This document shows positions 12,501 to 62,225 of a stretch of DNA of 64,000 nucleotides, piece after piece. Every line of letters begins with the position of its first letter. Within the stretch, counting starts at the first letter, position 1. A program made the position numbers and the translations under genes. This DNA comes from a virus, in IMG/VR virus record IMGVR_UViG_3300030381_000254, positions 69,982 through 133,981 of that record; one strand, 5' to 3'. The notes beneath the pieces were generated by a model. It did not search any database and was not told the DNA's origin. It worked only from the letters and a program-made list of their open reading frames with translations.

Positions 12501-15500
12501 TCCTTTTTCAGGAGTCTTTCCTTCATCAACAGTTGTATCACTAATAGCTGTATAAATCTTCTTATCTTCTTTTACGTAGTAAGTAGTACCAACTACTAAT
12601 CTAGAAGTAGGAATTTGATCTTTACTATCTACAAAATGATCAATACCAAATACTTGAACTACTTTTCCAGGAAGTTGTGAATCTGGAATTTTTCCATTAT
12701 CATCAAGGGTAGCAACTCCGTTAAGAGCACCCATCTCAGAACGTTTAACCTGAGCATCATTAGTAACGTTACCTAAACCTACTTGTTCTTTCGTTACTCC
12801 ATGAGGATTATTTTTATCTGAAATATGTTCATCAATTTTTGAATTAACATCATTAAGTTGATTTAATTCAGCAAAGATAGAACCATCCCAACGATACATT
12901 TTATTCCCCAATCCAGAAGTAATATCTACATAGATAACTCCTGTAATAGGCTCATATGGATGTCCTTGTTTATCATTAAAAGTAGTTTCATTAATGTATT
13001 TACCTTCCAATACATTTATAGCTTCCTTAGGTATTTGTGCCTGAACTAATTTTCCATTAGAGTCTAAAGTAGCAATACCATTAGGTTGTGCTAAAGAATC
13101 ATTAATAGCTTTTAATCCACTAGTTAATACATCTAAAGCTTCTTGTGTAGCAGTAGATATAGGTTTATTCAAGTCACTTGTGTTATCAACTTCACTTAAA
13201 CCAATATCTTCTTTATCTAATACAGGATTTTCAGATATCTTATAACCATTAATAGTATAATTATCTGTAGTTTCTTTATTAGAATCAATATTTTGTTTAA
13301 GTTCGTCTTTAACTGCATCTAATGCTGCTTGTTGAGCTTTAGATACTGGTTTATTAACGTCACTTGTATTATCTACATCTCCTAAACCCACTTGAGCTTT
13401 AGTAACTTGATGTGGATTTTCGAAATCTTCTAAATGAGAATTTACTTTATCAGTAGTTTCTTTACCTTTATCTCCAGGATATGCTGTTCCAGCTATTTCT
13501 CCTAAATGTATAGGATTTCCAATTTCTACTAAATCAGTACCATCCCATCTATAAATTATATTAGTATCTCTATCTGAGTATATTACTCCTTTTTCTGGAG
13601 TCTTTCCCTCATCTAGAGATGTATCACTAATAGCTGTATAAATTTTCTTCTCAAGTTTTGCATAATAAGTAGTTCCGGTATCTAATCTAGAAGTAGGAAT
13701 TTGATCTTTACTATCTACAAAATGATCAATACCAAATACTTCATCTACTTGACCTGGTAATTGCCATGTTGGAATTTTTCCATTTATATCAAGAGTAGCG
13801 ACTCCTTCAGCAACTCCCATTTCTGTTCTCTTAACTTGAGCATCATTAGTTACATTTCCAAGACCTATTTGTTCTTTTGTTACTTCATGAGGATTAGATT
13901 TATTATCAATGTGATCTAATATATCTTGCTCTATATCTCCAGTTTGGCAAAGTTTAACAAACGCTGTACCATTCCAACGATATATATTATTATTAGATCC
14001 ATCAGTAATATCTACATAAATTATTCCTAATGCTGGAGTGTATGGAGAATCTGACCTATCATTAAAAGTAGTTTCATTAATATACTTACCTTCTAGTACA
14101 TTAATTGCTTTACTTGGAATTTGAGATTCTACCAATTTTCCATTAGAATCTAGAGTAGCAATTCCATCAGGTTGAGCTAATGAATCATTTAATTTATTAG
14201 CTAGTTCTTTAACTGAATCTAAATCAGATTGTGCTGCTTTAGAATTCAATTCATCTGTTAAACCACTAATATCTGCAATTTCAATTACTACTTCTCCAGA
14301 CTTTCCATTAACAGATTTTACTGCATCTACATTATCTACCTTAGCCCAATTTCCACCGTTATTAATTACCCAATCTCCAGGTTCGAAATTTATACCGAAT
14401 TGAGATCCAGCAATCGAAACAACATAATATTTTCCAGAATTCTCTGGAGAATTATCTGTTAACTCCGGTATATTCTTAGAAGCATCCCAAGTTCCTGAAT
14501 ATCTTACATTTCCTAATACTGAATCAGGTAATTGAGAACTAGGAACTTTTCCAGATTCATCAAGTGTAGCAACTCCTTCTGCTATACCCATTTCAGCTCT
14601 TTTAACCTGAGCATCATTAGTAACATTACCTAATCCTACCTGTTCTTTTGTTACTTGATGAGGATTAGACTTATCTGCAATATGAGCCTCTACTTTAGAA
14701 TCTACTGTATCAATATTTCCTTGTAATTCTTCTTTTGCTACATTTACGGCTTCATCTACTATATCTTTAATCGAAGTATTTTCATCAATACCTTCAGAAA
14801 GAGTATCTAATTTCTTTTTATCTTCCTTAGACATAGTACCATTAGCTTCCTGTGTAGCTGTAGGTAAATTTGTAGTTGCTAATTCAGTAAAATCTTTAGA
14901 AGTTAGATCATAACTCCAACTATTAGAATCAGCAAATATTTCCCCATAGTAAGTATAAGTTCTCCATACTCCTGTAGTATCTAAAAATTTACACTTAACT
15001 CCAGGTACTCTATATTTAGGATCAGCGTAGCTATCTAATTTAGATATAGCTAATTGAATAGTCCACTGATCTTTATTATCTCCTTGTCCTTCTCCTGGGA
15101 AAAGAGACGTAACATTATATACTATATCTGAATGCTCTTGTAATTTCTTCAATGCATCTAACGTAGCAGTAGAAATCGGCTTATCCATATCAGATGTATT
15201 ATCTACATTTCCTAAGCCAACCTGTTCTTTAGTAACATTATGAGGATTTTCAGTATTAGAAGTATGAGCTTCCAAATCTACCTGAGAAGCTTTAGAATCT
15301 AATTCATCTCTTAAATTTGGAATATCTTCAATAACTAATTCTACTATTCCATCTTTACCATTAACAGATTTTACTGCGTCTACGTTATCTACCTTAGACC
15401 AAGATCCATTACTATTAATTACCCAATCTCCTGCGTCAAAATCAAATCCAAATTGAGATCCCGGAACATCAACAATATAGTAATGTCCATTATCTTCTTC

Positions 15501-17675
15501 ATTTCCTTCTACTAGTTCAGGAGTATTTGTGGAAGCGTTCCAAGTACCCATAAACTTAACATTTCCTAATACAGAATCAGGAAGTTGTGAATCTGGTACT
15601 TTTCCATTATTATCAAGGGTAGCAACACCATTAGCAACTCCCATCTCAGAGCGCTTAACTTGAGCATCGTCCGTAACATTTCCAAGGCCAATGTCAGTTT
15701 TATTTAAGACAGGATTTTCAGATATCTTATAACCATTAACAGTATAATTATCTATTACTTCTTTAGTATCTTCTACGATTTCATTAATCTTATCTACTAT
15801 AGAAACGCCTTCTCCTATACCTTCGGAAAGAGTATCTAATTTCTTCTTATCTTCCTTAGACATAGTACCGTTAGCCTCTTGTGTAGCGGTAGGTAAATCT
15901 ACAGTTGCTAATTCAGTAAAATCTTTAGAAGTTAGATCATATTTCCAAGAACTTACGTCAGTAAATACTTCTCCATAGAAAGTATAAGTTCTCCACTTTC
16001 CATCCTCAGTTATTAATTTAATCTTAACTCCTGGAACTTTGTACTTACTATCAATTGTACCACTTAGTCTAGATATTGCGGATTGTAAATTCCATTGATC
16101 TTTATTATCTCCTTGTCCTTCTCCTGGAAAGAGATCAACTATATTAAATAATACTTCAGTATGTGAAATTAATTCATCTAAAGCTTCTTGAGTAGCAGTA
16201 GATATAGGTTTATCCATATCAGAAGTATTATCTACGTTTCCAAGACCAACATCTTCTTTATTTAAGACAGGATTTTCAGATATCTTATAACCATTAACAG
16301 TATAATTATCTATTACTTCTTTAGTATCTTCTACGATTTCATTAATCTTATCTACTATAGAAACACCTTCCTCTATGCCTTCAGAAAGAGTATCGAATTT
16401 CTTCTTATCTTCCTTAGACATAGTACCATTAGCTTCTTGTGTAGCTGTAGGTAAATTTGTTGTAGCTAATTCAATAAAATCTTTAGAAGTTAGATCATAG
16501 TTCCATTTAGATTCATCTAATATTTCGGAAGATTCTCCATAGAAAGTATAAGTTCTCCACTTATCTTCATTAGATAAAAATTTTATTTTAATACCTGCTA
16601 ATCTTTCTTCATCTGATAATAGTGAATCTAATTTAGATATGGCTCTAGTTAAAGTCCATTGATTCTTATTATCTCCCATTCCTTCATTAGGAAAAAGAGT
16701 ATTAATATTATAGAGATATTCTGTATGAGATTGCATTTCATCTAGATCAGACTTATACTCTTCTTTTACTTTATTATCTCCTGCATTAATGGCTTCTTGA
16801 ACCCCGCTTAATTTTAGCCCGTTTTCAGATAAACTTAAAAAATCTTCACTACTTTCGTCTCTAAGTATTCCAATAGTAGGATCATTTTTTGTTCCTTCTA
16901 TAATAATACCCTTTCCTTCTGTAGCGGTGATGCTATGAACTGTATTTTCATTTAATGAATCTATCTGATCTTTTAACTCTTTTCCTTGAGATGCTCCTAA
17001 TACTTGTTCAGATTCACCTCCTTCTAAAGAATTAATTATATCAGTTTTCTTTACATATAATTTTTCAGCATCTTCCTTCTTAAGATACGGCTCTAATTCG
17101 ATACCTAAATCATATTCTCCTAATTTCTCCCAAGCTCTAGATTCAAATCCAGCCTCATCATAGACAGTAGTAAGAATATATTCTATATATTTTTGATTCT
17201 CTCCTTCATTTTCTGTTTTTCTTAAGATATATATCTTATTAAACTTTGCTTCTTTTAAAGGAGGAAGTTCATCAACAAATATAAAAATTTCAGTATCCAA
17301 CGTACAAGAAATGATATTATCTTCTGAAATATTAATTCCTGTACCAGCTGTTAACTTATCTTGTTTTTTCTTTAATTCTTCTTGTAATTGATCTTCGGTA
17401 ACATATTCACCTAAAGAGGATTTCCAACCCTCTTCTGAATGACGATTATCCCAACTAATTAATTTATAATTAGATGCTTCACTAACTACATACCATTCTT
17501 GACCAATTGCATCATCTCCAGTATTATCTCCACTATCAGACAATATACAATCTGGTATTTTATACAAAGCTTCTAGAGATGATACAGTTTTGTGTCCTGA
17601 GATTTCTATAGCTCTCGCAATCCCATAACTTTTAGGATTATTAGACACTAATATATCTGCAAATTTTAATGCCAT
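9549..17675 (-). CDS. Giant tail fibre protein, 2708 aa, highly repetitive
   Basis: Its N-terminus is shared with fibre 5379..8090. There are more than 20 tandem copies of a ~35-aa unit NPHxVTKEQVGLGNVDNTSDxDKPVSxATQ. There are three ~185-aa repeats (…LTSKDFTELATTNLPTATQEANGTMSKEDKKKLDTLSEGI…) with near-identical DNA, and repeated …IYRWDGTDLVEIGNPIHLGE… blocks. It shares the C-terminal module with its neighbours. Confidence 0.7.
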   Translation of the reverse strand: MALKFADILVSNNPKSYGIARAIEISGHKTVSSLEALYKIPDCILSDSGDNTGDDAIGQEWYVVSEASNYKLISWDNRHSEEGWKSSLGEYVTEDQLQEELKKKQDKLTAGTGINISEDNIISCTLDTEIFIFVDELPPLKEAKFNKIYILRKTENEGENQKYIEYILTTVYDEAGFESRAWEKLGEYDLGIELEPYLKKEDAEKLYVKKTDIINSLEGGESEQVLGASQGKELKDQIDSLNENTVHSITATEGKGIIIEGTKNDPTIGILRDESSEDFLSLSENGLKLSGVQEAINAGDNKVKEEYKSDLDEMQSHTEYLYNINTLFPNEGMGDNKNQWTLTRAISKLDSLLSDEERLAGIKIKFLSNEDKWRTYTFYGESSEILDESKWNYDLTSKDFIELATTNLPTATQEANGTMSKEDKKKFDTLSEGIEEGVSIVDKINEIVEDTKEVIDNYTVNGYKISENPVLNKEDVGLGNVDNTSDMDKPISTATQEALDELISHTEVLFNIVDLFPGEGQGDNKDQWNLQSAISRLSGTIDSKYKVPGVKIKLITEDGKWRTYTFYGEVFTDVSSWKYDLTSKDFTELATVDLPTATQEANGTMSKEDKKKLDTLSEGIGEGVSIVDKINEIVEDTKEVIDNYTVNGYKISENPVLNKTDIGLGNVTDDAQVKRSEMGVANGVATLDNNGKVPDSQLPDSVLGNVKFMGTWNASTNTPELVEGNEEDNGHYYIVDVPGSQFGFDFDAGDWVINSNGSWSKVDNVDAVKSVNGKDGIVELVIEDIPNLRDELDSKASQVDLEAHTSNTENPHNVTKEQVGLGNVDNTSDMDKPISTATLDALKKLQEHSDIVYNVTSLFPGEGQGDNKDQWTIQLAISKLDSYADPKYRVPGVKCKFLDTTGVWRTYTYYGEIFADSNSWSYDLTSKDFTELATTNLPTATQEANGTMSKEDKKKLDTLSEGIDENTSIKDIVDEAVNVAKEELQGNIDTVDSKVEAHIADKSNPHQVTKEQVGLGNVTNDAQVKRAEMGIAEGVATLDESGKVPSSQLPDSVLGNVRYSGTWDASKNIPELTDNSPENSGKYYVVSIAGSQFGINFEPGDWVINNGGNWAKVDNVDAVKSVNGKSGEVVIEIADISGLTDELNSKAAQSDLDSVKELANKLNDSLAQPDGIATLDSNGKLVESQIPSKAINVLEGKYINETTFNDRSDSPYTPALGIIYVDITDGSNNNIYRWNGTAFVKLCQTGDIEQDILDHIDNKSNPHEVTKEQIGLGNVTNDAQVKRTEMGVAEGVATLDINGKIPTWQLPGQVDEVFGIDHFVDSKDQIPTSRLDTGTTYYAKLEKKIYTAISDTSLDEGKTPEKGVIYSDRDTNIIYRWDGTDLVEIGNPIHLGEIAGTAYPGDKGKETTDKVNSHLEDFENPHQVTKAQVGLGDVDNTSDVNKPVSKAQQAALDAVKDELKQNIDSNKETTDNYTINGYKISENPVLDKEDIGLSEVDNTSDLNKPISTATQEALDVLTSGLKAINDSLAQPNGIATLDSNGKLVQAQIPKEAINVLEGKYINETTFNDKQGHPYEPITGVIYVDITSGLGNKMYRWDGSIFAELNQLNDVNSKIDEHISDKNNPHGVTKEQVGLGNVTNDAQVKRSEMGALNGVATLDDNGKIPDSQLPGKVVQVFGIDHFVDSKDQIPTSRLVVGTTYYVKEDKKIYTAISDTTVDEGKTPEKGTIYSNRDTNYIYRWDGTDLVEIGNPIHLGETEGTAYEGNKGKATTDKLNEHVANTENPHNVTKAQVGLANVDNTADMDKPISTATQEALDKITSDVESHTTNKSNPHEVTKAQVGLGNVDNTADLDKPVSNATKELINSTKDSLTQTITLHTENKNNPHGVTKEQVGLANVDNTADLNKPVSIAQQAAIDKVKSEILPEVDKVNSSLTAHVSSENNPHKVTKAQIGLGNVDDTSDENKPVSLAQEARISKVESDLTAKITIHTSDKNNPHEVTKAQIGLGDVDNTRDIDKPISTATQRALDELDSRLSESVTTHIADKSNPHQVTKEQVGLSNVTNDAQVKRSEMGVASGVATLDESGKVPSSQLPSFVDDIVEADSLDEFPEVGEIGKIYLAKDTNIIYRWSGSKYVEISSSLALGETSSTAYPGDKGKATTDKLNEHVANTENPHQVTKEQVGLANVDNTSDMDKPVSTATQAAIDKVKEDLEQSIGEGSETLTSHIANKSNPHEVTKEQVGLGNVDNTADKDKPVSTAQSEAISAAKAEVTKSINDHIADVRNPHGVTKEQVGLGNVDNTSDLNKPVSNATREALSALSDSVTQIVNAHAQNYSNPHQVTKAQVGLDRVDNTNDLEKPVSNATQELVNKIKLDLTTTITSQGEILNAHVADKNNPHSVTAFQIGLGNVNNTADMDKPVSTATQIALDKKADLVDGKVPTTQLPDQVIHSLHYRGFWDADINSPKLENDLGNNAQEGDYYIVRGQGVRFGYEFLPYDIIFNAYGTWYRLSGSNQRDEVTRFDITSFTADKYECEIGENATIKFNWEYNGLGEGENPESQNINGNVAEPASRTLSITDVLADTTFVLSAGYRGISASAELQVKFYSKVYVGTSTNNTVSDSELQAMTSFFDNEKNSLPLTKLDCTGGKYIYVAIPKVNATNYTIYANNILVTDVVETSRNVVNASGGKAEYTIYRLSNKYNGILNIEVKLNK
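11700..13700 (-). repeat. Tandem array of ~105-nt (35-aa) NPHxVTKEQVGLGNVDNTSD fibre repeats
   Basis: A recurrent DNA motif recurs, ...cctaaaccaacttg(t/a)(t/g)ctttcgttac(t/c)ccatgaggatt.... More than 20 peptide repeats are visible in the translation. Confidence 0.65.
14640..16750 (-). repeat. Intragenic ~185-codon repeats in the giant fibre gene, three copies
   Basis: The DNA is near-identical at about 16255..16515 and 15700..15960, for example ...tttcagatatcttataaccattaacagtataattatctattacttctttagtatcttctacgatttcattaatcttatctactatagaaac.... A third copy lies around 14790..14960. Confidence 0.7.
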
Positions 17676-35742: not shown

Positions 35743-36098
35743 AATTTATATTTATTTATTACAGAATCCAGTTAAATTGTCTTATTTTTATGAAGTCAAA
35801 GGAGTTTCCCTTTAACTCAATTGTAAGGATAATAAGTTATAATAAACGTATTTTGTCGATTTTATTGAGATAATTTTAACCATATTCTAATATAAGATAG
35901 TTATTGAAAGAAATTCGACACCTTTTCCTTTCTTTCCCTCCTTTCAATGGGAGGGAAAGAATCAATTTTAATAGAATAATTTCCTATAACACTTTATAGG
36001 GTTTCATTCAAGTTTAAAAGGAAAAAAGTAGAAGGGCTAACGCCTTTGTCTTCAGAAATAAAGGACAAAAATAAATAAGTAAGATTAGTTAATCTTAC

Positions 36099-36350
36099 TT
36101 ATGAAAAAGTTACGATGATAAATCCGATATATAAATATATTAAGATACTTAATATATAAAAATCTCTCATTATTTTAGATTCTTTTAAGTACATACCTAT
36201 ACTATTATCATCGATAGAACTCTTTAAATTACATAATGTATTTATTGAACTACTGTTCTTTATTAAAATTCCGATTAAAAGAACAGTAAACCAAACTGCT
36301 ATACCTGGAAATAAAAATAAACCTTCCAGATTATTCATAAATTTTCTCAT
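36099..36350 (-). CDS. Small membrane protein, 83 aa
   Basis: Two hydrophobic helices. The promoter-like motif lies upstream on the minus strand and a terminator hairpin lies downstream at 36078..36097. Confidence 0.4.
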   Translation of the reverse strand: MRKFMNNLEGLFLFPGIAVWFTVLLIGILIKNSSSINTLCNLKSSIDDNSIGMYLKESKIMRDFYILSILIYLYIGFIIVTFS

Positions 36351-36388
36351 ATATTTAAATTAAAGTTATTGTATTCTTTAAAAGTTTA

Positions 36389-36415
36389 TCTTTCATATAT
36401 AAGGCTTTGAAGGAA
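36389..36415 (-). promoter_or_regulatory. Conserved phage promoter-like motif on minus strand
   Basis: The reverse complement reads ccttcaaagccttatatatgaaaga, about 40-65 nt upstream of the minus gene 36099..36350. Confidence 0.5.
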
Positions 36416-36571
36416 TAATAAAAGAAAGAAAAAATTAGCACCGTTTTCACAAACAGTGCTAATCATAATTTGATAATATCGAACTTAATTGCTTTAGACG
36501 ACAATTTTACTAATTGTCTTTAACTATGTCCATTTATAAGGATTTTAAGGGTTTTAAATTATAATAGTTTA

Positions 36572-36590
36572 TAATCCTTATAAATGATAA
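36572..36590 (+). promoter_or_regulatory. Promoter-like motif variant
   Basis: taatccttataaatgataat lies upstream of the gene at 36607. Confidence 0.35.
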
Positions 36591-36606
36591 TATTAATAAG
36601 CAATTT

Positions 36607-41578: not shown

Positions 41579-43105
41579 ATGTGTAATAATAACATTACAG
41601 AACAATCATTAGAAAAATGGAAAACTTTAATTCAAGCTTGTAAAAACTATTATATTGACTCTCTTCCAACAGGAATGAGTGATAGTGAGTTTGATGAGTT
41701 GGAATTAAAGGCGATAAAGGAAGATGGTTTTTTTGCTAGAGATTATGTATTCAATACATATTTGAAAGGAACAAAAACCAAAAATAGTTGGATAGAAAAA
41801 ATAAAAAAGAAAAAAGTAGAAGGAATATCTATGTTAGATGCTCTTCGAAATGTAGAGAGAGAGTTTGGAGAAGAATTATTGTATGATTTAAAATATGATG
41901 GGGCTTCTATAGCTATTTACATAGATCCTACTACTGGGACTCCGATGAGAATCGTAACTGTAGGAAATCTAAACTTAGACAACTATGGTGTAGATCAAAC
42001 TTGGAAATTAATAAGCTTTCTTCCGAAAAAGTTTCCAAAAGGTATTGTTGCTATTCAAGCCGAAGCTCTTGTAGATTTAAATAGGTTGGGAGATTCTGAC
42101 CCAGATACTGCAAGACAAAAGGCTAATGGATTAGTAAATTCTAAGTATCTTGTATCAGAAGTAAATAATTATTTAACATTAAGAGCTTATAGATTTTATA
42201 TTGATCCTAATATCGATAAGGAAAGTTTTTGGAAATCGTATAATTATGATTTTAGAAATGTAATAAATTCATTTGAAATCACATATTCTCCTATAGACGG
42301 ACATATTTTATTTGCACCAGCATCAATTTGGACTTTAAAGGATTTAGAATCTGCTCCTGGATATACAGAAACGTTAAAAACTATTACTCCAACCGGTTAT
42401 TTTTTAAATGATGGTTGGGTGATATACAACAAGTTGGGAGTATGTATAGGAGCGCTTAAATATTCTGGAGCTGGAAATGATACTGAGTTGGTAAAAACAG
42501 AAGTATTAGGAATTCAATGGAATTCTCAAGTTGCTAAAGGAAAAGATAGTTGGTCAGCAAATATTTTAATTAATCCAATACAGATAAAAGGATGTACTAT
42601 AAAAAAACCTTCAGCAGGAAGTGTTAGTAAAATGGTATCAAAGAAAATAACTCCTGGATCTATTGTTAGTATTATAATGGCAAACTCTACTATTCCAATG
42701 GTTGGAGAATCATTTAAAGAAGGTAATGGAGATTTTCAATGGCCTACTTGTCCATGTGGATATACAATGTCTGAAAAAGATGTATATGGAAGTTTATTAA
42801 AGTGCGGTAATCAACTGTGCAGTGAAAGAATGGGAAGAATGAGATCATATTTATCTTCTCTTCAACCAAATTTAGTTGGATTTGATTTAAATAAATATCT
42901 TGTTATTGATAGGTTTAAGTGGGAGAACACTAATATAGATTTATCAATATTATTCTCATTTGTTGAAAATAACAATGAGCAAGGATTTTTTGAATACCTA
43001 GCAGGATATTTAACTACTCAATTACAGCTTAGAAATTTAAACTTAGTTTGGAAAGCAGGATTTATTGTTTTAAGAGAATATTATGAAAAGTTTATTAGAG
43101 TTTAA
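41579..43105 (+). CDS. ligA: NAD-dependent DNA ligase (compact LigA-like, no BRCT)
   Basis: The N-terminal Ia-like LIQACKNYYIDSLPTGMSDSEFDELELK fits AxxxYYxxDxPxxSDxEYDxL. The adenylation motif is LKYDGASIAIY (KxDG). A C4 zinc finger CPCGYT...CGNQLC is present. Confidence 0.65.
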   Translation: MCNNNITEQSLEKWKTLIQACKNYYIDSLPTGMSDSEFDELELKAIKEDGFFARDYVFNTYLKGTKTKNSWIEKIKKKKVEGISMLDALRNVEREFGEELLYDLKYDGASIAIYIDPTTGTPMRIVTVGNLNLDNYGVDQTWKLISFLPKKFPKGIVAIQAEALVDLNRLGDSDPDTARQKANGLVNSKYLVSEVNNYLTLRAYRFYIDPNIDKESFWKSYNYDFRNVINSFEITYSPIDGHILFAPASIWTLKDLESAPGYTETLKTITPTGYFLNDGWVIYNKLGVCIGALKYSGAGNDTELVKTEVLGIQWNSQVAKGKDSWSANILINPIQIKGCTIKKPSAGSVSKMVSKKITPGSIVSIIMANSTIPMVGESFKEGNGDFQWPTCPCGYTMSEKDVYGSLLKCGNQLCSERMGRMRSYLSSLQPNLVGFDLNKYLVIDRFKWENTNIDLSILFSFVENNNEQGFFEYLAGYLTTQLQLRNLNLVWKAGFIVLREYYEKFIRV

Positions 43106-45050: not shown

Positions 45051-45586
45051 AAATTGATGGAACTATTATTATTACAGATCCTTGTTATTTTGTAAAAAAG
45101 GATGGAGATTGGTCTAGCGAAGATACTGGATTTAATTATGTAACTTGTAAAATAAATCCTTCTTTAGGATTTACAGATTATATTTGGGAAGCTACTAAAG
45201 TTGGAGACGGAAGATGGAAAGTCTCTGAAATGAATAAAGTTATGTGTCAACTAGAGTTAGAAAAATTTGTTGAGGACATAGAGGATGCTTATTATAGTTT
45301 TTATAAAAATTCTAATATTGATAATCAAATAAAGTTAGAAGATCTTATAAGATCTAGAAAAACTATAGGTAGATTTTGTGTAGACTCTGGAAGTTTTGGA
45401 GTATTTAAATTAGATGAAGTATTGAAATACTGTCCAGATTTTCTTTCTAGTTACGGAGATTGGTGTTATACTATTATTCCTAATTTTATTGGGGATGTTA
45501 ATTTTTATGAAGATTCAAATAATCAAGTTCATATTTTAGGAGTAGGTAATAAATCTTTTTATAGTAATACAGTATCATGGTTGTAA
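45047..45586 (+). CDS. Hypothetical protein, 179 aa
   Basis: ORF only. Confidence 0.35.
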   Translation: MKIDGTIIITDPCYFVKKDGDWSSEDTGFNYVTCKINPSLGFTDYIWEATKVGDGRWKVSEMNKVMCQLELEKFVEDIEDAYYSFYKNSNIDNQIKLEDLIRSRKTIGRFCVDSGSFGVFKLDEVLKYCPDFLSSYGDWCYTIIPNFIGDVNFYEDSNNQVHILGVGNKSFYSNTVSWL

Positions 45587-46008
45587 AAATAGTTAATAAA
45601 TCAAATAATCCAAATCCAAAGTACGCTAAACCAGGGGACAGTGGAATGGATATAAGAACTTTTATAGATGAACCCGTAGTGTTAGGACCTTTGGAAAGAT
45701 ATACTTTTCCTACAGGTATTTACTTAGATATTCCTGAAGGTTATGAAATTCAAATTCGTCCACGAAGTGGATTAACTAGTAATCAAGGATTAGTAGCTCA
45801 ATTAGGAACTATTGATTCTTCTTACACGGGAGAGCTAAAGATTACATTAATAAATCTTAGTAATGAAACTCATACTATTAATTCAGGTGAAAGAATAGCT
45901 CAAATAGTTTGTGCAAAAGTTGAAATCATAACTTTGGAAGAAGTAGATAAAATTGAAAAAATAACTGAAAGAGGAGGAAATGGCTTTGGACACTCAGGAT
46001 TACAATAA
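45577..46008 (+). CDS. dut: dUTP pyrophosphatase (dUTPase)
   Basis: The motifs are AKPGDSGMDIRT, IRPRSGL, GTIDSSYTGEL, RIAQIV and a C-terminal GGNGFGHSG. Confidence 0.8.
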   Translation: MVVKIVNKSNNPNPKYAKPGDSGMDIRTFIDEPVVLGPLERYTFPTGIYLDIPEGYEIQIRPRSGLTSNQGLVAQLGTIDSSYTGELKITLINLSNETHTINSGERIAQIVCAKVEIITLEEVDKIEKITERGGNGFGHSGLQ

Positions 46009-46417
46009 TAATAGTGAAATCAAAAGACTTCTTAGTATGAAAGGTACTAAGAGGTTAGAAATAGGTAATAACTTAACTGAGTACATACTAAATTATAATT
46101 ATTCAGAAAATACTCCAGGAATATCTTTAAGATTTCTAGAAACTAGAAAAAGAAGCGAAGAATTAGGGGATTGGGATAATTATTATGTATTGTTCAGCGC
46201 ATTAAAATATAATGATTCTATTGAATATTTAGATCATATATTTAAATCTATTTCGAAAATAATTAGTGATTGGTCTGATAAAATAGAAATTGATGTTATT
46301 GGATTACAAGAAGTAGATTGTAGTGAAGCAAAATATTATTATATATTAATTTATATATTAAGTAATGGAAGAGATAAAGAAATCGGAGAAAGAAATACTT
46401 TGTTCGGAGGAGAATAA
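45980..46417 (+). CDS. Hypothetical protein, 145 aa
   Basis: ORF only. Confidence 0.35.
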   Translation: MALDTQDYNNNSEIKRLLSMKGTKRLEIGNNLTEYILNYNYSENTPGISLRFLETRKRSEELGDWDNYYVLFSALKYNDSIEYLDHIFKSISKIISDWSDKIEIDVIGLQEVDCSEAKYYYILIYILSNGRDKEIGERNTLFGGE

Positions 46418-46811
46418 AGAAAGTATTAAATGTAAAGATCCAAATCCATATAGATATAGTAAACAATATATTTATGGATGGGATAATGCTATGTCTGTTG
46501 CAGCTGATATTTGGTCGAGTATACATTCTTCATTATTAAATGGAGAGCTAGTATTTGCTTATAAAAATTTAAATAGCGATTCTGAACTAGTTCAAATAGT
46601 TGTAGTAGTTAATTTATTTGATAAATTTGGGAATAAATTAATTAATTCAGACTTCGGAATTGGTATGGTTACATCAGGATATACTTCTTTACTTCCACAT
46701 GTACCACTAGATTACTTAGAAAATCAAGTAACTCAAGATCTTAAGAAATACAAAGTTAATAAAAAAATAATAGATAGTTTTAATGAAGTAATTAAAAATT
46801 ATAAACAGTAG
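46365..46811 (+). CDS. Hypothetical protein, 148 aa
   Basis: ORF only. Confidence 0.35.
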   Translation: MEEIKKSEKEILCSEENKESIKCKDPNPYRYSKQYIYGWDNAMSVAADIWSSIHSSLLNGELVFAYKNLNSDSELVQIVVVVNLFDKFGNKLINSDFGIGMVTSGYTSLLPHVPLDYLENQVTQDLKKYKVNKKIIDSFNEVIKNYKQ

Positions 46812-46816
46812 AAAAT

Positions 46817-47872
46817 ATGGGAAAAGATAATCAAAAGAAATTACTAGCATTAGATTATGGATATAGTTCTCTGAAGACAAGTTTTTATGATGAAAACGGG
46901 GTTCTTCAATTTGAGAAATTTATAAGCGCAGCAGCTAAATTGGGAGGAAAAGATTTAGTAGAAGATCCTAATGATGATACTATATTTTGTTTAAATGGTG
47001 AGTATTATGTTTTAGGAACTCCGGCACTTAAAGTTCCTAGATCTTTATTATATAGATTAGAGACATATGAAGATATGAAAGCTACTTATCCTATTTGGCT
47101 TTCTTATTTATTGAAAAGATATGGCGGTGATAATTGGTTAGATAGATTTGATCATGTAATTCTAGGTTTATCTTTAGCATTTAGCGATAAAGCTTCAGAT
47201 TTATTAGATCATTTATATGAATCATTAAATATTACTAAAGATAATTTCTTTCTCTGTCTTCCTCAAGGATTAAGTTGTAAACTTGCTTATCAGCAATTTG
47301 GTTTGGATTTGAGAGAAGTATCTAAAAAGAATGATGTGAAAATGCGAAATTACTTAATAGTTGATGGAGGATTTTTAAGTATTGATGCTGCACAAGTTCT
47401 TGATGGAAAATCTTCTGCTGGTGCTGCTATAGGATTAGCTAATACTGGGGTTATCTGTATAGTATATAAAATTATAGATTATTTATTCCAGAATTTTGAG
47501 ATGAAGATGAGTGTAAAAGAAGGTCAGACTGTATTGGATAATAACGGCTTATTTACACGAAGAATGAGAGAATATGATATTTCAGATAAAGTAAAAGAAT
47601 TTACTAGAGAATATCTTATTAATGTAATTAAACTATTAGAAGAAAAGTTTAGTGAATCACTAGATTCCATTGAAGGAATATTAGTTTGCGGAGGTCTTGC
47701 TTATTTCTTTAATAAAATGAAAGATGATGAGATTTTAAATAAAGAAATAGAAAAACACTTTCCAAAATCATTTATTAAGTTAGGTGGAAATGGTAGTGAT
47801 AGTGAATTCTATAATTCAATCAGTTATCTTAAAATTGCGGAAAAATTAATCGATGAAGGTCGTTTAAATTAA
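46817..47872 (+). CDS. Actin-like ATPase (ParM/Alp family)
   Basis: Phosphate-1 is LALDYGYSSLKTSF. Phosphate-2 is IVDGGFLSIDAA. The adenosine/GG motif is ILVCGGLAYFF. At 351 aa it has ParM-like size. Confidence 0.6.
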   Translation: MGKDNQKKLLALDYGYSSLKTSFYDENGVLQFEKFISAAAKLGGKDLVEDPNDDTIFCLNGEYYVLGTPALKVPRSLLYRLETYEDMKATYPIWLSYLLKRYGGDNWLDRFDHVILGLSLAFSDKASDLLDHLYESLNITKDNFFLCLPQGLSCKLAYQQFGLDLREVSKKNDVKMRNYLIVDGGFLSIDAAQVLDGKSSAGAAIGLANTGVICIVYKIIDYLFQNFEMKMSVKEGQTVLDNNGLFTRRMREYDISDKVKEFTREYLINVIKLLEEKFSESLDSIEGILVCGGLAYFFNKMKDDEILNKEIEKHFPKSFIKLGGNGSDSEFYNSISYLKIAEKLIDEGRLN

Positions 47873-47952
47873 TTAATATTAGAGAACATTAGAACAATTT
47901 ACGTACGATATTGTAAATTAGTCCTAATGTTCTTCTTTTTTATTTTAAAATT

Positions 47953-48498
47953 ATGAGTGATAAATCAAAGATAATATATGGTCAAGCTTATATAGTTGAA
48001 AGACCTGAGAATAATAAAGGAAGAGTCTTATATAGTTTAGTACAGGAACAGACTCTAATAGTTCCCGGACAGGGTGCTGCTAATAATACTGTAGAATTGA
48101 TAGGTGATGTAGTTGGAGATCTTAAATCAGAAGGTACATATAAATATAATGGAAAGAATTATTTTTATTGGGAATATAAAATGACTGATTCTGAGAATGA
48201 TGATGTTAATACTACAATTAAGTATGAATGTCCACAACCTAGTTATTTTGGAGATGATTTTTTTACTGAAGAAGATACTATAGATACAGTAAAAGGAGAA
48301 TACTCTAAATATTGGATAAAGAAAATAAATACAGCTAAAGATAATTTTGAATATAAAGCAGCTATTCAGAAGAAAGAAATTGTTTTTCCTGGAACAAGCT
48401 ATGTGAATCAAAAAGGAGAATTAGTTGAAGTTAAGGAAATAAGAAATGCCAATACTGAATTAGGCGATATAACTAATTTATTAGATCAATTATTTTAA
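47953..48498 (+). CDS. Hypothetical protein, 181 aa
   Basis: ORF followed by a terminator. Confidence 0.4.
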   Translation: MSDKSKIIYGQAYIVERPENNKGRVLYSLVQEQTLIVPGQGAANNTVELIGDVVGDLKSEGTYKYNGKNYFYWEYKMTDSENDDVNTTIKYECPQPSYFGDDFFTEEDTIDTVKGEYSKYWIKKINTAKDNFEYKAAIQKKEIVFPGTSYVNQKGELVEVKEIRNANTELGDITNLLDQLF

Positions 48499-48502
48499 AT
48501 AA

Positions 48503-48537
48503 AAGAGAAAGGTATGAGTACCTTTCTCTTTTTTCTT
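48503..48537 (+). terminator. Rho-independent terminator
   Basis: Hairpin aagagaaaggtatgagtacctttctctt followed by ttttctt. Confidence 0.7.
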
Positions 48538-55728: not shown

Positions 55729-56709
55729 AGTAAACCGTCAACCTTCATTACATGAGTATAGTACTTTTGCAATGAAGTTAAGAATTCATGAGGATTATAC
55801 AATACATTTTCCTATTCAAGTATGTGAACCATTAAATGCTGACTTTGATGGTGATACTGTATCAATACAGTTAGTTCCGCCTGAAGCAGCTGAAGAGACT
55901 TATGAAAGAATGAGTCCTAGATATGTTACAATTTATAAAAAGAATAATGAACCTATTTATAAATTTAATCACGAAACACTTAATGGTTTAGCAGTTGCGA
56001 CTGAATATTCATACTCTGATTTGGAAGAATTGAAAGATCCTAAATATTTTTATACTGATTATGTTCAGTTATTAAAGGATGTAGAAATAGAAAAGAAAAT
56101 CAAAGTTGGAACACCGATTGTATTTACAGGAAAAATAGGGAATGTAGATTATCAATCTAAAGTTACAAGTTATGGTAGACTTCGTATTTCTAAAATACTT
56201 GATGCTGATATAGATAAAATTGGTATATTTAGTAATGAGTTTGAACGTATTAGTGCTAAGAGTGCAGCTAAGTTAAGTCTTTATTTAAATCAATTCGAAG
56301 ATGGAGTTGAAAAGAGAAAAGCACTTACTAAATTTGCTCTTCGCGTAGTTAGCATGGCTGGAGTAGTAACGTTTGATTATAAAACACTGTATGCTGATTG
56401 TGATACGGAGACTTATAAGAGAATTTGTAACGTAGCAGATTCTAAAGAACTTACAGATAAACAGAAACTTTTGATAATGACTCAAGAATTTAAGAAATAT
56501 GAGGACGAAGTTTCTGCAAGTTTTAGTTCTGATTTGAAAAATGAACTTGATAGAGCAGCTCGTGTTAAATTATCATCTATTGTAGCAATGTCAATGCCAC
56601 AGTTTATAACTTCAGGAGTTGATGAAAAACCTGTAATTACTCGTGGAACATTGTTATCTGGTTACACAGAGAAAGATTATCAATTACATGCAATAGAAAA
56701 TCGAAGCTT
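55729..56709 (+). CDS. rpoC: RNA polymerase beta' subunit, exon 2 (catalytic NADFDGD region); 3' end approximate
   Basis: VNRQPSLHEYSTFAMKLRIHEDYTIHFPIQVCEPLNADFDGD aligns to E. coli NRAPTLHRLGIQAFEP...NADFDGD. A bridge-helix-like SGY motif lies near the end. The exon end was chosen at the U at 56709, 70 nt upstream of the P element, the same spacing as in intron 1. Confidence 0.6.
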
Positions 56710-57201
56710 ACAATCTATTAAAGTTAGTGGTGTTAAAATATTAAGCTCGAATATGGTAGCCCACTTAAAATAACAATTAAATGCTGGAAAGAATATGTAA
56801 ATATAAAATCAGCAACTTATATAATCTTTAAATCTATTTTATGGCGAGATTGGAAAAAGTTTTAGAAATTTTAAAAGTAATTGGAGGAATTGCTAAAACT
56901 ATGCTTTGTGGAATGGAAGAGTATAGAAGAATTCAAGAAACAAGAGCATATAGAGAAAATCAAAAGAAAAAAGTAAAATATTTACCAAAGCCAAAGAAAA
57001 GATATAAAAGAAATAAATAAGATCAACGACTATGTATTGTTAGATTAAACAAAGTTTAATCATGATATAGTCTAATCCTATGTGATAAACATAGGCAGGA
57101 TGGGATTTTAGGAAGCGCTTTTAATTTATATTATAGCCTAATATCCTTGAATGACCTTCGAGCGGATATTTAACTCGTCAAATATCTTTCCTTTTAAATA
57201 G
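56710..57201 (+). mobile_element. Group I intron 2 in rpoC (~490 nt), boundaries approximate
   Basis: P element AAATGCTGGAAAG is at 56779, Q element AAATCAGCAAC at 56806, R element ATCAACGACTATG at 57022 and S element CATGATATAGTCT at 57061. A P9 hairpin lies at 57076..57095. G at 57201 is the only omega-G candidate consistent with phase, given the in-frame stop at 57170. The intron contains a 59-aa Lys-rich ORF at 56841..57020. No canonical U.G P1 pairing was found, so the 5' splice site could instead be at 56718 or 56724. Confidence 0.55.
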
Positions 57202-58686: not shown

Positions 58687-59037
58687 ATGAACGATAATTA
58701 TTATAAAATTACTTTATCATATGAAATTCCATATAACGTCATAGATTCTCAAGATCCTAATGTAATACAGGCTAGAAATATACTTTACGAAAAATTAAAA
58801 GATAGTATTTATCCTAAATATGAGAAATTTTCAGTTAAACTTGTATTATATCAGTTAAAAGATACATTTAATTATTTAGTTACATATGAGGCTTTCTTTA
58901 GATCTTTAGATGGTAAACCTATGGAAGAATATGTAGAGGCTCGTGATCTAAAAGATAGTATTAAGAAAGAATTAGAAGATTTTTTTAATTCAGTAGATTG
59001 CGATTATAAGCAGTTAAATATTAAAACATTATTATAA
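58687..59037 (+). CDS. Hypothetical protein, 116 aa
   Basis: ORF whose stop overlaps the rpoB start. Confidence 0.35.
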   Translation: MNDNYYKITLSYEIPYNVIDSQDPNVIQARNILYEKLKDSIYPKYEKFSVKLVLYQLKDTFNYLVTYEAFFRSLDGKPMEEYVEARDLKDSIKKELEDFFNSVDCDYKQLNIKTLL

Positions 59038-62000
59038 TGAGTAATTTTAATCAATATTTTAGAAACACTGGAGTAAAAATAATGGTAGATAAGTTCTTCA
59101 GACAGAGTAATATAGATAAATATAATCCAGATAATAAAATTACTTCTTTGGATTATGAAATTATCGAAGAACCACCTCAGCCAGCTTCTTACTATATAGA
59201 AAATGGTTTGACTGCTACTCATAAAGTAAGAATTAATTATACCATTAATGAAGACGATGAACTAAAATATGCAGAATTTGAAGTACCTAAAGAAATAGAT
59301 GGAGCTTTTATTATAGAAGGAGCTTATCGTATTTCAACTAACAAAATGAATGCAGATTTTGACTGTCGTATTCGTATGTCAGGTACTGGAGAATATACAG
59401 TAAAATTCGATTATGATAGAACATATGATATAAATAAAAAGATTTTAAAGATAACTAGAATAAATCCAGATCTAGGAATTTCAGAAAAGGCTATGGATAT
59501 TCACTTTGATGATATCGATAAGACCTTAGAAACTGATAAAAAAGATATTCTTAAACTTACTGAAAGACAGTCTAAGAAATTGATGATTAAGTTGGACCTA
59601 GACTATAAACCGGAGTATATAACACAAAAGCTTATTCAAGATTGTATGGCTTTTGGAGACGATAGACTTAAGGATTTAATCATTGATAAAACTATAGAGT
59701 CTGTACCTAATGGATTTATGAAATATCTATTCAGAGATAATAATCGAAGAAACTATTATTCTGCTTGTAGAAGAATAAATTCATACTTTACTAAATATGG
59801 AAGAATACAGGATCAAGTTACTGCTATTACTACTTTATGTTTCAGATATTTTAAAGGAGCAAAAGATATCTCTACAGCAGAAACAGGAATTCAGGTTCCT
59901 CCTGGTGTAAACTCTATTAATCTAGAAGCAATCTCTAATAAAATTGTTATTCCAGATAGCATAGCATATAATACCACATTTAGTGATTTGATAGATATTG
60001 CTGATACACCTATTAATAATAATACTAATCTCCAGAATTCATTAACGGTTTCATGTCATATTACTGATGATGATATACTTTTTGATGTTTATGATAAAAA
60101 TTTTATGAGGATAACTATCCCTTACATCGATTATCTTAACCATAAAGTATGTGCATCTGAATTTGTAGATTACGAAACTAATACTATAAAACCTAATAAA
60201 GATGGACAAGTAGAAGTTAAGTATAGAATGAAACGTAGAATGGTTCCTGTAGAGGAGATAGAATTAATAGACCTACATCCTGACTATAGATTATCCGGAA
60301 CTACTAGAAGAATACCATTTGTAAATTATACTGATAGTGTTCGTATTAGTATGGGTACTTCTATGTTAAAACAAAGTATTCCATTAGTTAATGCAGAACG
60401 ACCATTAGTTGATACTGGTAGATCGGAAGAGTTAAAAGATAATATATTGAATGAGAAATTTCAATATCCAGAAGGAAAAGTAAAAGATATTACTGACGAT
60501 AAAGTAGTAATAGAGTTACCTGATGGAACTGAAACTGAAATATTAAGACGTACGGCTATTCAGAGTATAAATGATGTCGCTGTATTTACAGAGCCTAAAG
60601 TAAAGATTGGACAAAAAGTAAAACAAGGAGATATTATTACTGGAGCTGTAGGACATACACTAGATACTTATAAATCTGGAGTTAATGCATTAGTTCTTTT
60701 CCATGCATATCATGGATTAGTTAATGAGGATGCTTTGGTTATTTCAGAGTCTTTTGCAAATCGAATAGCATCTTATAGCATTATAGATTTAATGATTAAT
60801 GTTAAAAATATTAGTGCTATTAAGTGGATTGCTCCTATTGGAACTAAAGTTAAATCTAAAGATCCAGTAGTTACATTATATAAAGCAGTTCGTCTAGATG
60901 CTATAAATGCTGCTTTACAGGAAAAATTAGGAGGATTATTTGGAGAAGGAAGAGATTTAACCGAATATACTATTGAGGATCATCTAAAAGTACCTAATAA
61001 TATAGATGAAGCTTGGGTATCTGACGTTATGGTTCAAGAAATGAAGAATCCTAAAATTCCAAAATCTGTAAAAGCTCCTGATTACTCATTTGCGCATACT
61101 TCTCAAGATGTTATTAATGAGTATGAGAAAAATAAAGATAGAAAAGTAATTTATGATAAATTTCCAGAATATGTAGCAGCTGATACTTTAGATCCGATTA
61201 ATATGGATCCAGATGCATATAAAATTGTTTATACAGTTAGAATAAGACTGATTAAGAGAACAATAGGTATGATTGGATCTAAGATTACATCTAGATATGG
61301 AGGTAAAGGAGTAGTTAGCTGTGTAAAACCGGACGAACAGATGCCTATTATGGTAGATAAATTTGGAAATAAGACGAGAGTTGAAGTAGTAATGAATCCT
61401 TATTCAACTATTAATCGAAAAATTCCTAGTGTTCTTATGGAATTTGCTCTTGGAAATATTGCACATAGATTACATGATCTTGTAGATGAGTATAAGAAAA
61501 CAAAAACTGGACAGAAGAAAATTAAACCATTGTTAGAAAAATATTATCCAGGAAGATTTGACTCTATGACTATTGAAGAAATAATAGATCGTCATAATTC
61601 AAGTCCTATTGAAGAAATGTATTATTTTAATGTTGGTTGTTTTTCTACTAAATTCACACCAGAGTTAGTTAATGAATGGTCAGATGAATTAGGAGTAGAA
61701 TCTCAGAGTAAGATTCTAATGCCTGAAAATGAACTTACTGATCTCGATGAATTAAAGGAAAATTTAGATTCAGAAGAATACGAACAGGTGGTGAAAAATA
61801 TAACAGGTAAATTTATTGAAGTTGATAAGCCTCTAATGACTGGATATATGTGTTTAGAGGAGTTATATCATATACCTAGTTACTCTAATAAAGTTACCAC
61901 TAGTTTGTATGGAGTGGATGTAAATCCTAGAAGAGACGAACCTATATTAGGACGGGGAAGATATCGTTTAACTGGACAAAAGATTGATGAAATGAGTTTG

Positions 62001-62225
62001 TCAGTTCTTTTATCTAGAAATGCTAAGAAATTCATAGAAAGTACTCGTAAGGATACAGCTACTGAAGATAATCAGTTATTCTTGAATAATCTTCTTGGAT
62101 TAGGATTAACTGTGGTTGATGATAAAGGATTTAATCAAGGAGGTAGTTCTTTGAAGAAAGAATTAAATGATCTTAAAGTTAAATTCCGTCGTAAAAATAA
62201 TTTATTAAATTTGGGAGATAAATAA
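59037..62225 (+). CDS. rpoB: RNA polymerase beta subunit (compact, 1062 aa)
   Basis: MGTSMLKQSIPLVNAERPLV aligns to the beta motif NMQRQAVPL...PLV. GRGRYRLTGQKIDEMSLSVLLS aligns to GGQRFGEMEVWAL. Confidence 0.7.
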   Translation: MSNFNQYFRNTGVKIMVDKFFRQSNIDKYNPDNKITSLDYEIIEEPPQPASYYIENGLTATHKVRINYTINEDDELKYAEFEVPKEIDGAFIIEGAYRISTNKMNADFDCRIRMSGTGEYTVKFDYDRTYDINKKILKITRINPDLGISEKAMDIHFDDIDKTLETDKKDILKLTERQSKKLMIKLDLDYKPEYITQKLIQDCMAFGDDRLKDLIIDKTIESVPNGFMKYLFRDNNRRNYYSACRRINSYFTKYGRIQDQVTAITTLCFRYFKGAKDISTAETGIQVPPGVNSINLEAISNKIVIPDSIAYNTTFSDLIDIADTPINNNTNLQNSLTVSCHITDDDILFDVYDKNFMRITIPYIDYLNHKVCASEFVDYETNTIKPNKDGQVEVKYRMKRRMVPVEEIELIDLHPDYRLSGTTRRIPFVNYTDSVRISMGTSMLKQSIPLVNAERPLVDTGRSEELKDNILNEKFQYPEGKVKDITDDKVVIELPDGTETEILRRTAIQSINDVAVFTEPKVKIGQKVKQGDIITGAVGHTLDTYKSGVNALVLFHAYHGLVNEDALVISESFANRIASYSIIDLMINVKNISAIKWIAPIGTKVKSKDPVVTLYKAVRLDAINAALQEKLGGLFGEGRDLTEYTIEDHLKVPNNIDEAWVSDVMVQEMKNPKIPKSVKAPDYSFAHTSQDVINEYEKNKDRKVIYDKFPEYVAADTLDPINMDPDAYKIVYTVRIRLIKRTIGMIGSKITSRYGGKGVVSCVKPDEQMPIMVDKFGNKTRVEVVMNPYSTINRKIPSVLMEFALGNIAHRLHDLVDEYKKTKTGQKKIKPLLEKYYPGRFDSMTIEEIIDRHNSSPIEEMYYFNVGCFSTKFTPELVNEWSDELGVESQSKILMPENELTDLDELKENLDSEEYEQVVKNITGKFIEVDKPLMTGYMCLEELYHIPSYSNKVTTSLYGVDVNPRRDEPILGRGRYRLTGQKIDEMSLSVLLSRNAKKFIESTRKDTATEDNQLFLNNLLGLGLTVVDDKGFNQGGSSLKKELNDLKVKFRRKNNLLNLGDK

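Follow-up and report, generated by a model that had tools for sequence, protein, structure and literature searches.

A divergent ParM/Alp-type actin-like protein of a jumbo gut phage and its co-conserved acidic neighbour

The 64,000-nucleotide (nt) stretch analysed here (hereafter the window; positions 69,982–133,981 of the IMG/VR virus record IMGVR_UViG_3300030381_000254) encodes a 351-residue actin-like protein (ALP). An initial annotation had described its gene as a ParM/Alp-like actin homologue lying in a replication module, and motif, profile and fold evidence bears out the assignment to the actin superfamily. As the best overall explanation of the locus, we consider it somewhat likely that it encodes a divergent ALP filament of a jumbo phage together with a tail-bearing partner protein, and not a ParMRC cassette. 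The candidate partner is the acidic 181-residue product of the next gene downstream.

The three motif strings named in the annotation, phosphate-1 (LALDYGYSSLKT), phosphate-2 (DGGFLSIDAA) and adenosine (VCGGLAYF), are all present in the open reading frame (ORF) in the order given there, and with connect-1 they complete a set of nucleotide-binding motifs whose order and spacing are canonical (phosphate-1, connect-1, phosphate-2, adenosine). Conservation was scored on an alignment of 31 actin homologues that are 49–89% identical, in which the key residues of these motifs are invariant (Table 1). Since the motifs are invariant or nearly so throughout the alignment, they are under selection and do not represent chance matches. 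Q150 of connect-1 occupies what we take to be the position of the catalytic glutamate in ParM and of Gln137 in actin. The helix SEFYNSISYLKIAEK near the C-terminus is conserved as well; it spans residues 328–346 in the AlphaFold2 (AF2) model described below and is possibly part of a cleft that binds a partner or a neighbouring protomer. Homologues are numerous, with 160 retrieved from ~5.8 billion proteins (the best 120 at E<1e-100), many of them encoded on contigs of 200–404 kb.

Profile searches point, weakly but consistently, to the ALPs. Its match to PHROG 691, 'partition protein', is full-length (E=1.6e-18, residues 6–343 against positions 2–324 of a 329-position profile). Pfam matches fall below the gathering cut-offs for MreB-like_C (25.7 bits, cut-off 27.8), ALP_N (18.5 bits, cut-off 26.3) and Alp7A_C (Alp7A_like_C). 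Across the 31 family members, MreB-like_C is found in 30, ALP_N in 23 and ParM_N in 13, with best E-values of 1.4e-8 for MreB-like_C and 2.9e-9 for ParM_N. A search of 72,556 plasmids gave a sole match, a ParM/StbA protein of Thermovibrio (24.8% identity, E=3e-7), and the homologue from a Campylobacter phage forms a weak bridge to the NCBIfam families PRTRC_D and ParM.

The predicted structure points in the same direction and is decisive. The AF2 model, built from the 31-sequence alignment, is confident (pLDDT, the predicted local distance difference test score, 87.7; pTM, the predicted template modelling (TM) score, 0.86). When the model was compared with the PDB using Foldseek, the best match was pCBH ParM (E=2.5e-17, TM 0.70 in both directions, 349 versus 351 residues), followed by Ta0583, BtParM of B. 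thuringiensis, CorM, R1 ParM (including its complex with a ParR peptide, 4a62) and Alp7A. Proteins of these kinds occupy all of the top 19 positions, and behind the top ParM-type structures come MamK, Dh-cParM1, pSK41 ParM and BeeR. DnaK/Hsp70 appears first at rank 22 and then at rank 29, with lower TM scores; MreB structures are found at rank 28 and lower, and Arp and actin also follow the ParM types with lower scores. Neither sugar kinases nor FtsA are among the top 50. The annotation had named best matches to sugar kinases or Hsp70 as the outcome that would speak against it; the lead taken by the ParM types is the opposite result. Identity in the structural alignments is 11–17%. Taken together, motifs and predicted fold make it probable that the protein is an ATP-binding, ATP-hydrolysing and filament-forming ALP.

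An actin-fold ATPase that does not polymerize, either as a chaperone module similar to Hsp70 that cooperates with the GroES/GroEL of the phage or as a kinase or other enzyme of the acetate and sugar kinase/Hsp70/actin (ASKHA) superfamily, would be in keeping with the position of the GroES/GroEL genes 7–8 kb upstream in the same gene array and with the DnaK nucleotide-binding domains in the fold list (E ~1e-10, TM 0.57–0.60); moreover, polymerization cannot be read from a sequence. However, the E-values of the ParM-type filament formers are better than those of Hsp70 by a factor of about a million (six orders of magnitude), their TM scores are higher too, no Hsp70 substrate-binding domain is present in the 351 residues, the HSP70, sugar-kinase and FGGY models of Pfam match none of the 31 members, and every sub-threshold profile match is to an ALP, ParM or MreB-like family. 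We regard such an enzyme as improbable. Its Hsp70-chaperone variant, which the nearby GroES/GroEL genes had brought to mind, was rejected on the fold ranking and the missing substrate-binding domain.

Mixed assembly and capping are possible among actin-fold proteins. The phage actin might co-assemble with, or poison, MreB, FtsA or another actin homologue of the host and so alter cell shape or division, and the presence of MreB and MamK among the fold matches, as well as the GenBank name 'MreB-like ATPase' carried by some relatives, could be read in this way. We consider this highly improbable: structural likeness to the ParM types is clearly higher than to MreB, FtsA is outside the top 50, the Pfam domain 'MreB-like_C' is the Ta0583/ALP-type domain, whereas the canonical MreB model matches none of the 31 members, and interference would leave a conserved, dedicated partner gene unexplained. 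A straightforward identity as MreB was likewise discarded, given the absence of a canonical Pfam match in the 31 members and an MreB that is not the nearest structure.

The candidate partner gene is the second element of our explanation of a divergent ALP filament. A homologue of the 181-residue protein lies downstream of the actin gene in 65 of 68 jumbo-phage sequences (67 loci and the window), and the three loci that lack it end 0.2–1.3 kb after the actin gene. Partners are 42–67% identical where the actins are 51–54% identical, and the most divergent homologues (37–41% identity) still have the actin gene immediately upstream. At the loci with divergent partners, the two small ORFs upstream of the actin gene are lost or reduced, and the downstream neighbour is NrdD (L073, L075) or a DnaB-type helicase on the opposite strand (L008). 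The annotation had considered the partner system to be unknown. This holds insofar as no ParR was found; on the other hand, the co-conserved downstream gene now offers a concrete candidate.

Transcription signals also group the two genes. Between 43.5 kb and the stop codon of the partner no terminator-like hairpin is found on the plus strand, and one follows directly after that stop (Table 1), so that a single transcription unit appears to end with the actin and partner genes. Terminator-like hairpins are enriched in the region as a whole (nine between 43500 and 52700, 1.3 expected). Those on the plus strand are located at gene ends (48501, 49803, 50325, 52207 and 52352), as would be expected if the actin operon were followed by short transcription units with clear boundaries. 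In many genomes of an abundant sister group, the spacer between actin and partner contains a free-standing HNH-type homing endonuclease (215 residues, ...IDHINCIRYDN...) with small ORFs, or a 3' remnant of it (compare L020:5026–6716 with L068:5026–5239); some genomes keep only the last ~26 codons, a polymorphism of insertion and decay. Thus, translational coupling of the two genes is not required.

The partner has a β-rich head, a low-confidence linker and a predicted helix at residues 174–180. Its C-terminal tip (NANTELGDITNLLDQLF) is nearly invariant: I173 and L176 are invariant, N167, G171, D172, N175, L177 and F181 are at least 90% conserved, and the tip is still present in highly divergent members. 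The head matched no known fold. A profile search with the partner family gave 101 representatives, and no Pfam domain was found in the 10 divergent or longer members scanned. On this evidence we give slightly less than even credence to the 181-residue protein being a filament partner, which would attach to the actin by its C-terminal helix, held on a tether, and bind a cargo other than a centromere with its head.

The same protein might have nothing to do with the actin and instead be a replication accessory that resembles a single-stranded DNA-binding protein (SSB) or binds the sliding clamp, with the actin acting alone or with unlinked partners. The predicted strand order of the head, β1-β2-β3-helix-β4-β5, is similar to that of the oligonucleotide/oligosaccharide-binding (OB) fold, the protein is acidic (pI 4.67), its flexible linker leads to a conserved hydrophobic tip ending in phenylalanine, several DUF669 proteins are among its weak matches in BFVD, and replication genes are located nearby. 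The tails of EcSSB and T7 gp2.5 have this layout, and the tip of the partner resembles clamp-binding motifs of the QLxLF type. We regard this alternative as a substantial minority possibility.

Several points weigh against a divergent ALP filament with a dedicated partner. The NCBIfam scan of the actin protein gave no match, and HMMER searches of PDB sequences with the single protein and with the 31-sequence profile recovered no actin-family chain; thus, the link between this family and the PDB is made by fold comparison alone, and sequence similarity to characterized ALPs is marginal. Polymerization and ATPase activity are predictions from fold and motifs. As for the partner, no cargo-binding or DNA-binding feature was found in it, its layout is equally typical of SSB-type proteins, and its tail is possibly a clamp-binding one. 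The pair is split by insertions of 0.2–1.7 kb in many genomes, no partner-like gene stands beside the actin in the Campylobacter, Rhizobium, Vibrio, Acinetobacter and Ralstonia phages, where the downstream genes are unrelated, and the proposed link rests on conserved adjacency inside one broadly syntenic phage clade. Scores below the Pfam cut-offs, the lack of NCBIfam and PDB sequence matches and the low structural-alignment identity also bear on the name: the protein is better called a deeply diverged ALP of the ParM/Alp branch than a canonical ParM. A role in defence was considered too and dropped, since NCBIfam and PADLOC returned nothing for either the actin or the 181-residue protein.

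As to the phage itself, gut-type metagenomes contain contigs, the longest of 372,947 and 376,500 bp, that encode the identical actin protein, and IMG/VR holds 58 related loci, mostly on viral contigs of 200–401 kb; T4-like jumbo gut phages of ~370–400 kb form a clade that has conserved the gene. One homologue (P0212, 338 residues) is named 'MAG: hypothetical protein [Bacilli bacterium]' in nr, MAG standing for metagenome-assembled genome, yet it is found on contigs that belong to this type of phage and are as long as 394 kb; this record probably represents a phage contig that was mis-binned into a bacterial genome. A 2025 preprint describes Jug phages as T4-like, rich in homing endonucleases, 360–402 kb long with 27–30% GC, with Bacteroides and Phocaeicola as predicted hosts, and reports that the clade accounts for ~1% of human gut metagenome reads (PMC12363816). 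Based on size, composition and habitat, the window phage probably belongs to these Jug phages. When 20 kb of the window was compared by megablast with GenBank phages, a set that includes no Jug genome, nothing matched. Homologues in cultured phages, identified by tblastn, are 26–30% identical over 83–99% of the actin length (E 1e-21 to 3e-35) and come from virulent T4-like or large myoviruses only, namely, the Campylobacter CP220/CP21 group, the Rhizobium RHph_TM30/Y65 group and phages of Vibrio, Acinetobacter and Ralstonia (RP13; on the virulent, T4-like nature of such relatives cf. PMC2853527). Annotations of these relatives vary between 'MreB-like ATPase', 'ParM-like' and 'partition protein', and no experimental work on them was found in the literature searched.

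No sign of a partition cassette was found around the gene. The annotation had noted neither a ParR nor a centromere repeat next to it and had proposed a search of the flanking DNA for iterons; in agreement with its first point, the region from 45.5 to 50.5 kb contains no direct-repeat array, tandem repeat of note or palindrome cluster, only AT-rich pairs at chance level, and a search for direct, inverted and tandem repeats revealed no iteron array in the four internal non-coding regions that are the largest of the window. Pfam, PHROG and NCBIfam scans of the neighbouring proteins revealed no ribbon-helix-helix (RHH), helix-turn-helix (HTH) or other recognizable DNA-binding domain, and the three conserved neighbours are all acidic. 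Nor was a DNA-binding adaptor similar to AlpA, or its cognate sites, identified in the window, where the actin-like component is present. The locus thus lacks, within these 64 kb, two defining features of ParMRC (type II partition), a ParR-type adaptor and a parC-like array, and we would not class it with the type II systems. The only recurrent intergenic motif is TATAAGGNTTTNAAGG, of 16 nt, with nine copies at up to two mismatches (2.2 expected; a count of nine was reached in none of 100 shuffles). It was rejected as parC because its copies are scattered singly among intergenic regions and do not cluster; more probably, it is a phage promoter or regulatory element.

Segregation could still be the task of the protein if the ~370-kb genome were maintained as an episomal prophage or in a carrier state, with the adaptor and centromere encoded elsewhere or too diverged. 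The ParM-like fold and the family name 'partition protein', in use in PHROGs and RefSeq, are consistent with this, as are statements in PMC12363816 that virion genes of Jug phages rank low in gut metatranscriptomes, in which 87–99% of genes are expressed, and that these phages persist for weeks after faecal microbiota transplantation. The reference list of this preprint also includes a ParMRC review and a phage-plasmid paper; in the text searched, ParM is mentioned in the reference-list entry only. However, no RHH or HTH adaptor is adjacent, the conserved neighbour is acidic and without a known DNA-binding fold, neither the surroundings of the gene nor the large non-coding regions of the window contain an iteron array, TATAAGGNTTTNAAGG is dispersed singly in a promoter-like manner, and the gene is situated inside a metabolic operon of lytic type. 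With virulent cultured relatives and neither adaptor nor centromere, plasmid-type segregation becomes less likely, and we consider it fairly unlikely overall.

We lean instead towards the idea that the divergent ALP filament positions or moves phage DNA or the sites of replication or assembly in the infected cell. ATP would be bound and hydrolysed at the canonical actin-fold site, the ALP would polymerize into filaments inside the infected cell, and these would position or move phage material, be it replicating DNA, replication or assembly sites or other cargo. The gene would be co-transcribed with that of the clade-specific acidic 181-residue protein, whose globular β-rich head would bind the cargo and whose amphipathic C-terminal helix, on its flexible linker, would dock on the filament in the way that the C-terminal helix of ParR docks on ParM (cf. 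4a62). The proposal starts from what the analysis shows, namely, the ORF, the conserved motifs, the ParM-like predicted fold, the pairing of the two genes and their operon layout; ATPase activity, polymerization, cargo, timing and the contact between the two proteins are inferred. In its most specific form, the proposal states that the jumbo phages most abundant in the human gut build an actin cytoskeleton in infected Bacteroides or Phocaeicola cells, as a counterpart of the PhuZ tubulin spindle, which is coupled to cargo by a novel adaptor, acidic, β-rich and without a known fold, through a tethered, invariant C-terminal helix and without centromere binding; all parts together are rather unlikely to be correct.

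The genes around the actin give a broader picture of the phage. The window is AT-rich (25–32% GC), and no tRNA genes are present in it. Over the first ~35 kb, tail-fibre genes and a giant ORF of 2,708 residues (9549–17675) lie on the minus strand; this ORF adjoins two tail-fibre-like genes of ~900 codons each (2595–5324 and 5379–8090) and may encode a very large component of the tail or baseplate. From ~36.6 kb onwards, a plus-strand array comprises GroES/GroEL, a ligase-like protein, dUTPase, two small ORFs, the actin and the 181-residue ORF, and continues downstream of the latter with a DHH phosphoesterase, endonucleases and an RNA polymerase beta-like protein with an Rpb2_6 domain. In related loci, a DnaB-type helicase or NrdD is found close to the actin. 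The annotated location in a replication module is therefore roughly right, the setting being a long co-directional array of early and metabolic genes. The two arrays diverge from an 864-nt non-coding region (35743–36606) that coincides with the minimum of the cumulative GC skew and contains two copies of the 16-nt motif; it is a candidate for a divergent promoter region or a replication origin.

The two small ORFs upstream of the actin are less constant. That of 148 codons is absent or replaced in L075 and cut to one small ORF in L073. The 145-residue product has no match in Pfam, PHROG or NCBIfam and only a weak PADLOC match to PbeD (E=0.0024). GroES and GroEL of the phage (~38540–40438, plus strand) are supported by Cpn10 and Cpn60 Pfam matches in identical loci. 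The 508-residue protein at 41579–43105 (plus strand) has a weak likeness to NAD-dependent DNA ligase (PHROG 3869, E=1.3e-18; ligase OB domain below the cut-off). The protein of 1,062 residues encoded at 59037–62225 (plus strand) matches Rpb2 domain 6 (E=1.2e-17) and the PHROG 'RNA polymerase beta subunit'; the phage thus has genes for a multisubunit RNA polymerase of its own, or at least for part of one, a trait that it shares with phiKZ-like jumbo phages. Finally, the counterpart of the 333-residue ORF at 55772–56773 (plus strand) is called a TnsA-like/NUMOD3 endonuclease in the near-identical genomes L001 and L003, the ORF in the window having a weak PHROG match; L002, L004 and L005 have other small ORFs instead, and the gene looks like a mobile homing-endonuclease cassette.

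Table 1. Position of the actin-like gene, its motifs and neighbours, and of the recurrent 16-nt motif, in window coordinates
Feature	Position	Strand	Remarks
Actin-like (ParM/Alp-type) ATPase gene	46817..47872	+	ATG start, 351 residues, stop included; assigned by PHROG 691, AF2, Foldseek
Phosphate-1 motif LALDYGYSSLKT, residues 10–21	46844..46879	+	D13, G15, S17 and K20 invariant in 31 homologues
Connect-1 motif P-Q150-G151, residues 149–151	47261..47269	+	Q150 and G151 invariant
Phosphate-2 motif DGGFLSIDAA, residues 183–192	47363..47392	+	D183, G184, G185 and D190 invariant
Adenosine motif VCGGLAYF, residues 290–297	47684..47707	+	G293 invariant; G292, L294 and Y296 at least 90% conserved
Conserved C-terminal helix SEFYNSISYLKIAEK, residues 329–343	47801..47845	+	E330, N333 and L338 invariant; S336 and Y337 at least 90% conserved
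Actin–partner spacer, 80 nt	47873..47952	+	No terminator
Co-conserved acidic 181-residue ORF (candidate partner)	47953..48498	+	β-rich head (1–135), flexible linker, C-terminal helix
C-terminal tip of partner NANTELGDITNLLDQLF, residues 165–181	48445..48495	+	Family consensus (D)LGDITNLLxLF
Terminator-like hairpin, 14-bp stem and T-run	48501..48532	+	Directly after the partner stop; likely end of transcription unit
Upstream 148-residue ORF	46365..46811	+	Kept in most, not all, related loci; no family match
Upstream 145-residue ORF	45980..46417	+	Kept in many related loci
dUTPase	45577–46008	+	
Copies of TATAAGGNTTTNAAGG	31201, 36398, 36535, 48539, 49742, 50368, 52123, 52402, 62946		All intergenic, single, mostly in one orientation to the downstream gene

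The actin protein is an uncharacterized, very divergent member of the established ALPs of phages and plasmids, and its family is already represented in PHROG 691 and GenBank. What is potentially new, as a hypothesis, is its obligate pairing with an acidic, tail-bearing protein of orphan fold in an abundant clade of gut phages. Phage cytoskeletons are known from a handful of cases, the tubulins PhuZ and TubZ and the actin AlpC; actin-type filaments would extend them to T4-like and jumbo phages, an abundant gut clade included. We know of nothing reported on how very large phage genomes are organized in Bacteroidota hosts, and the actin, if it polymerizes, would provide a handle on this. Should the 181-residue neighbour be an adaptor, it would be the second case, after CorR, of ParM-type coupling to something other than a centromere, and this by a fold other than that of ParR. 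Should the gene support episomal carriage, it would bear on the months-long persistence of these phages in the gut without obvious lysis. The locus is thus a solid starting point for testing whether gut jumbo phages have a cytoskeleton, rather than a categorically new element.

Among the systems to which the locus can be compared, ParMRC of plasmid R1 is the obvious reference. R1 ParM (1mwm, 4a61, 4a62) is an actin fold of similar size with the same motif order (Foldseek E ~1e-12, TM 0.55–0.64), and in both operons a small gene directly downstream encodes a product ending in a conserved C-terminal helix. However, identity in the structural alignment is 14–16%, HMMER detects no similarity, and Q150 replaces the catalytic glutamate of R1 ParM. 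In addition, the partner in the window is acidic, with a β-rich head of no known fold instead of an RHH DNA binder, no parC-like iterons were found in the regions of the window searched, and the replicon is a T4-like phage of ~370 kb rather than a low-copy plasmid. The closest solved structure, pCBH ParM of Clostridium botulinum (6izr, 6ixw), is 15–17% identical and, unlike the phage protein, is plasmid-borne and accompanied by ParR.

True sequence homologues are the PHROG 691 proteins of myoviruses (CP220 gp066, CP21_047, RHph_Y65 gp265, RP13 ORF17, Va2 and Ab1-TPeters). Their genes are also located among those for DNA and nucleotide metabolism, whereas the genes downstream of them are unrelated to the 181-residue partner. 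Most similar in arrangement is Ralstonia phage RP13 (L072, 1–4085), in which an NAD-dependent ligase, three small ORFs and the ParM/StbA-family gene are followed by an ORF of 171 residues. Unlike the acidic partner in the window, this RP13 protein (ORF18) has a very basic N-terminus (KKKTRVTTEKKPRRAANPDAVKTPRSKK), and it is plausible that it serves as a DNA-binding adaptor.

Functional parallels are found in three further systems. PhuZ of phiKZ-like phages is a cytoskeletal NTPase that organizes the infected cell of a jumbo phage (PMC7950403). A cytoskeletal role in a jumbo phage would be common to both, and the window, too, encodes a multisubunit RNA polymerase beta-like protein; PhuZ, however, belongs to the tubulin/FtsZ superfamily and not to the actins; the analogy is functional only. 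Neither a chimallin nor a tubulin gene was seen in the window, which covers 64 kb of ~370 kb. The best functional precedent is AlpC/AlpA of the Corynebacterium glutamicum prophage CGP3, in which the phage encodes an actin-like protein and, by a gene of its own, an adaptor; according to PMC4446434 and PMC5539076, AlpC supports viral DNA transport and efficient replication, as opposed to plasmid inheritance of the classical kind. AlpA is an adaptor that binds DNA and has defined alpS sites, whereas no such protein or sites were seen in the window; CGP3, moreover, is temperate and integrated as a prophage in an actinobacterium, and AlpC was compared by description only. The third parallel, CorMR of Anabaena (9rmi), is a ParMR system whose ParR has lost DNA binding, an example of ParMR modules being repurposed (bioRxiv 10.1101/2025.06.27.661541). 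CorR differs from the partner in the window in being still an RHH-fold homologue of ParR, with a membrane-binding helix, and CorMR is chromosomal and functions in cell shape; what it shares with our preferred explanation is a ParM-type filament (TM 0.67–0.69) combined with a partner that does not tether DNA.

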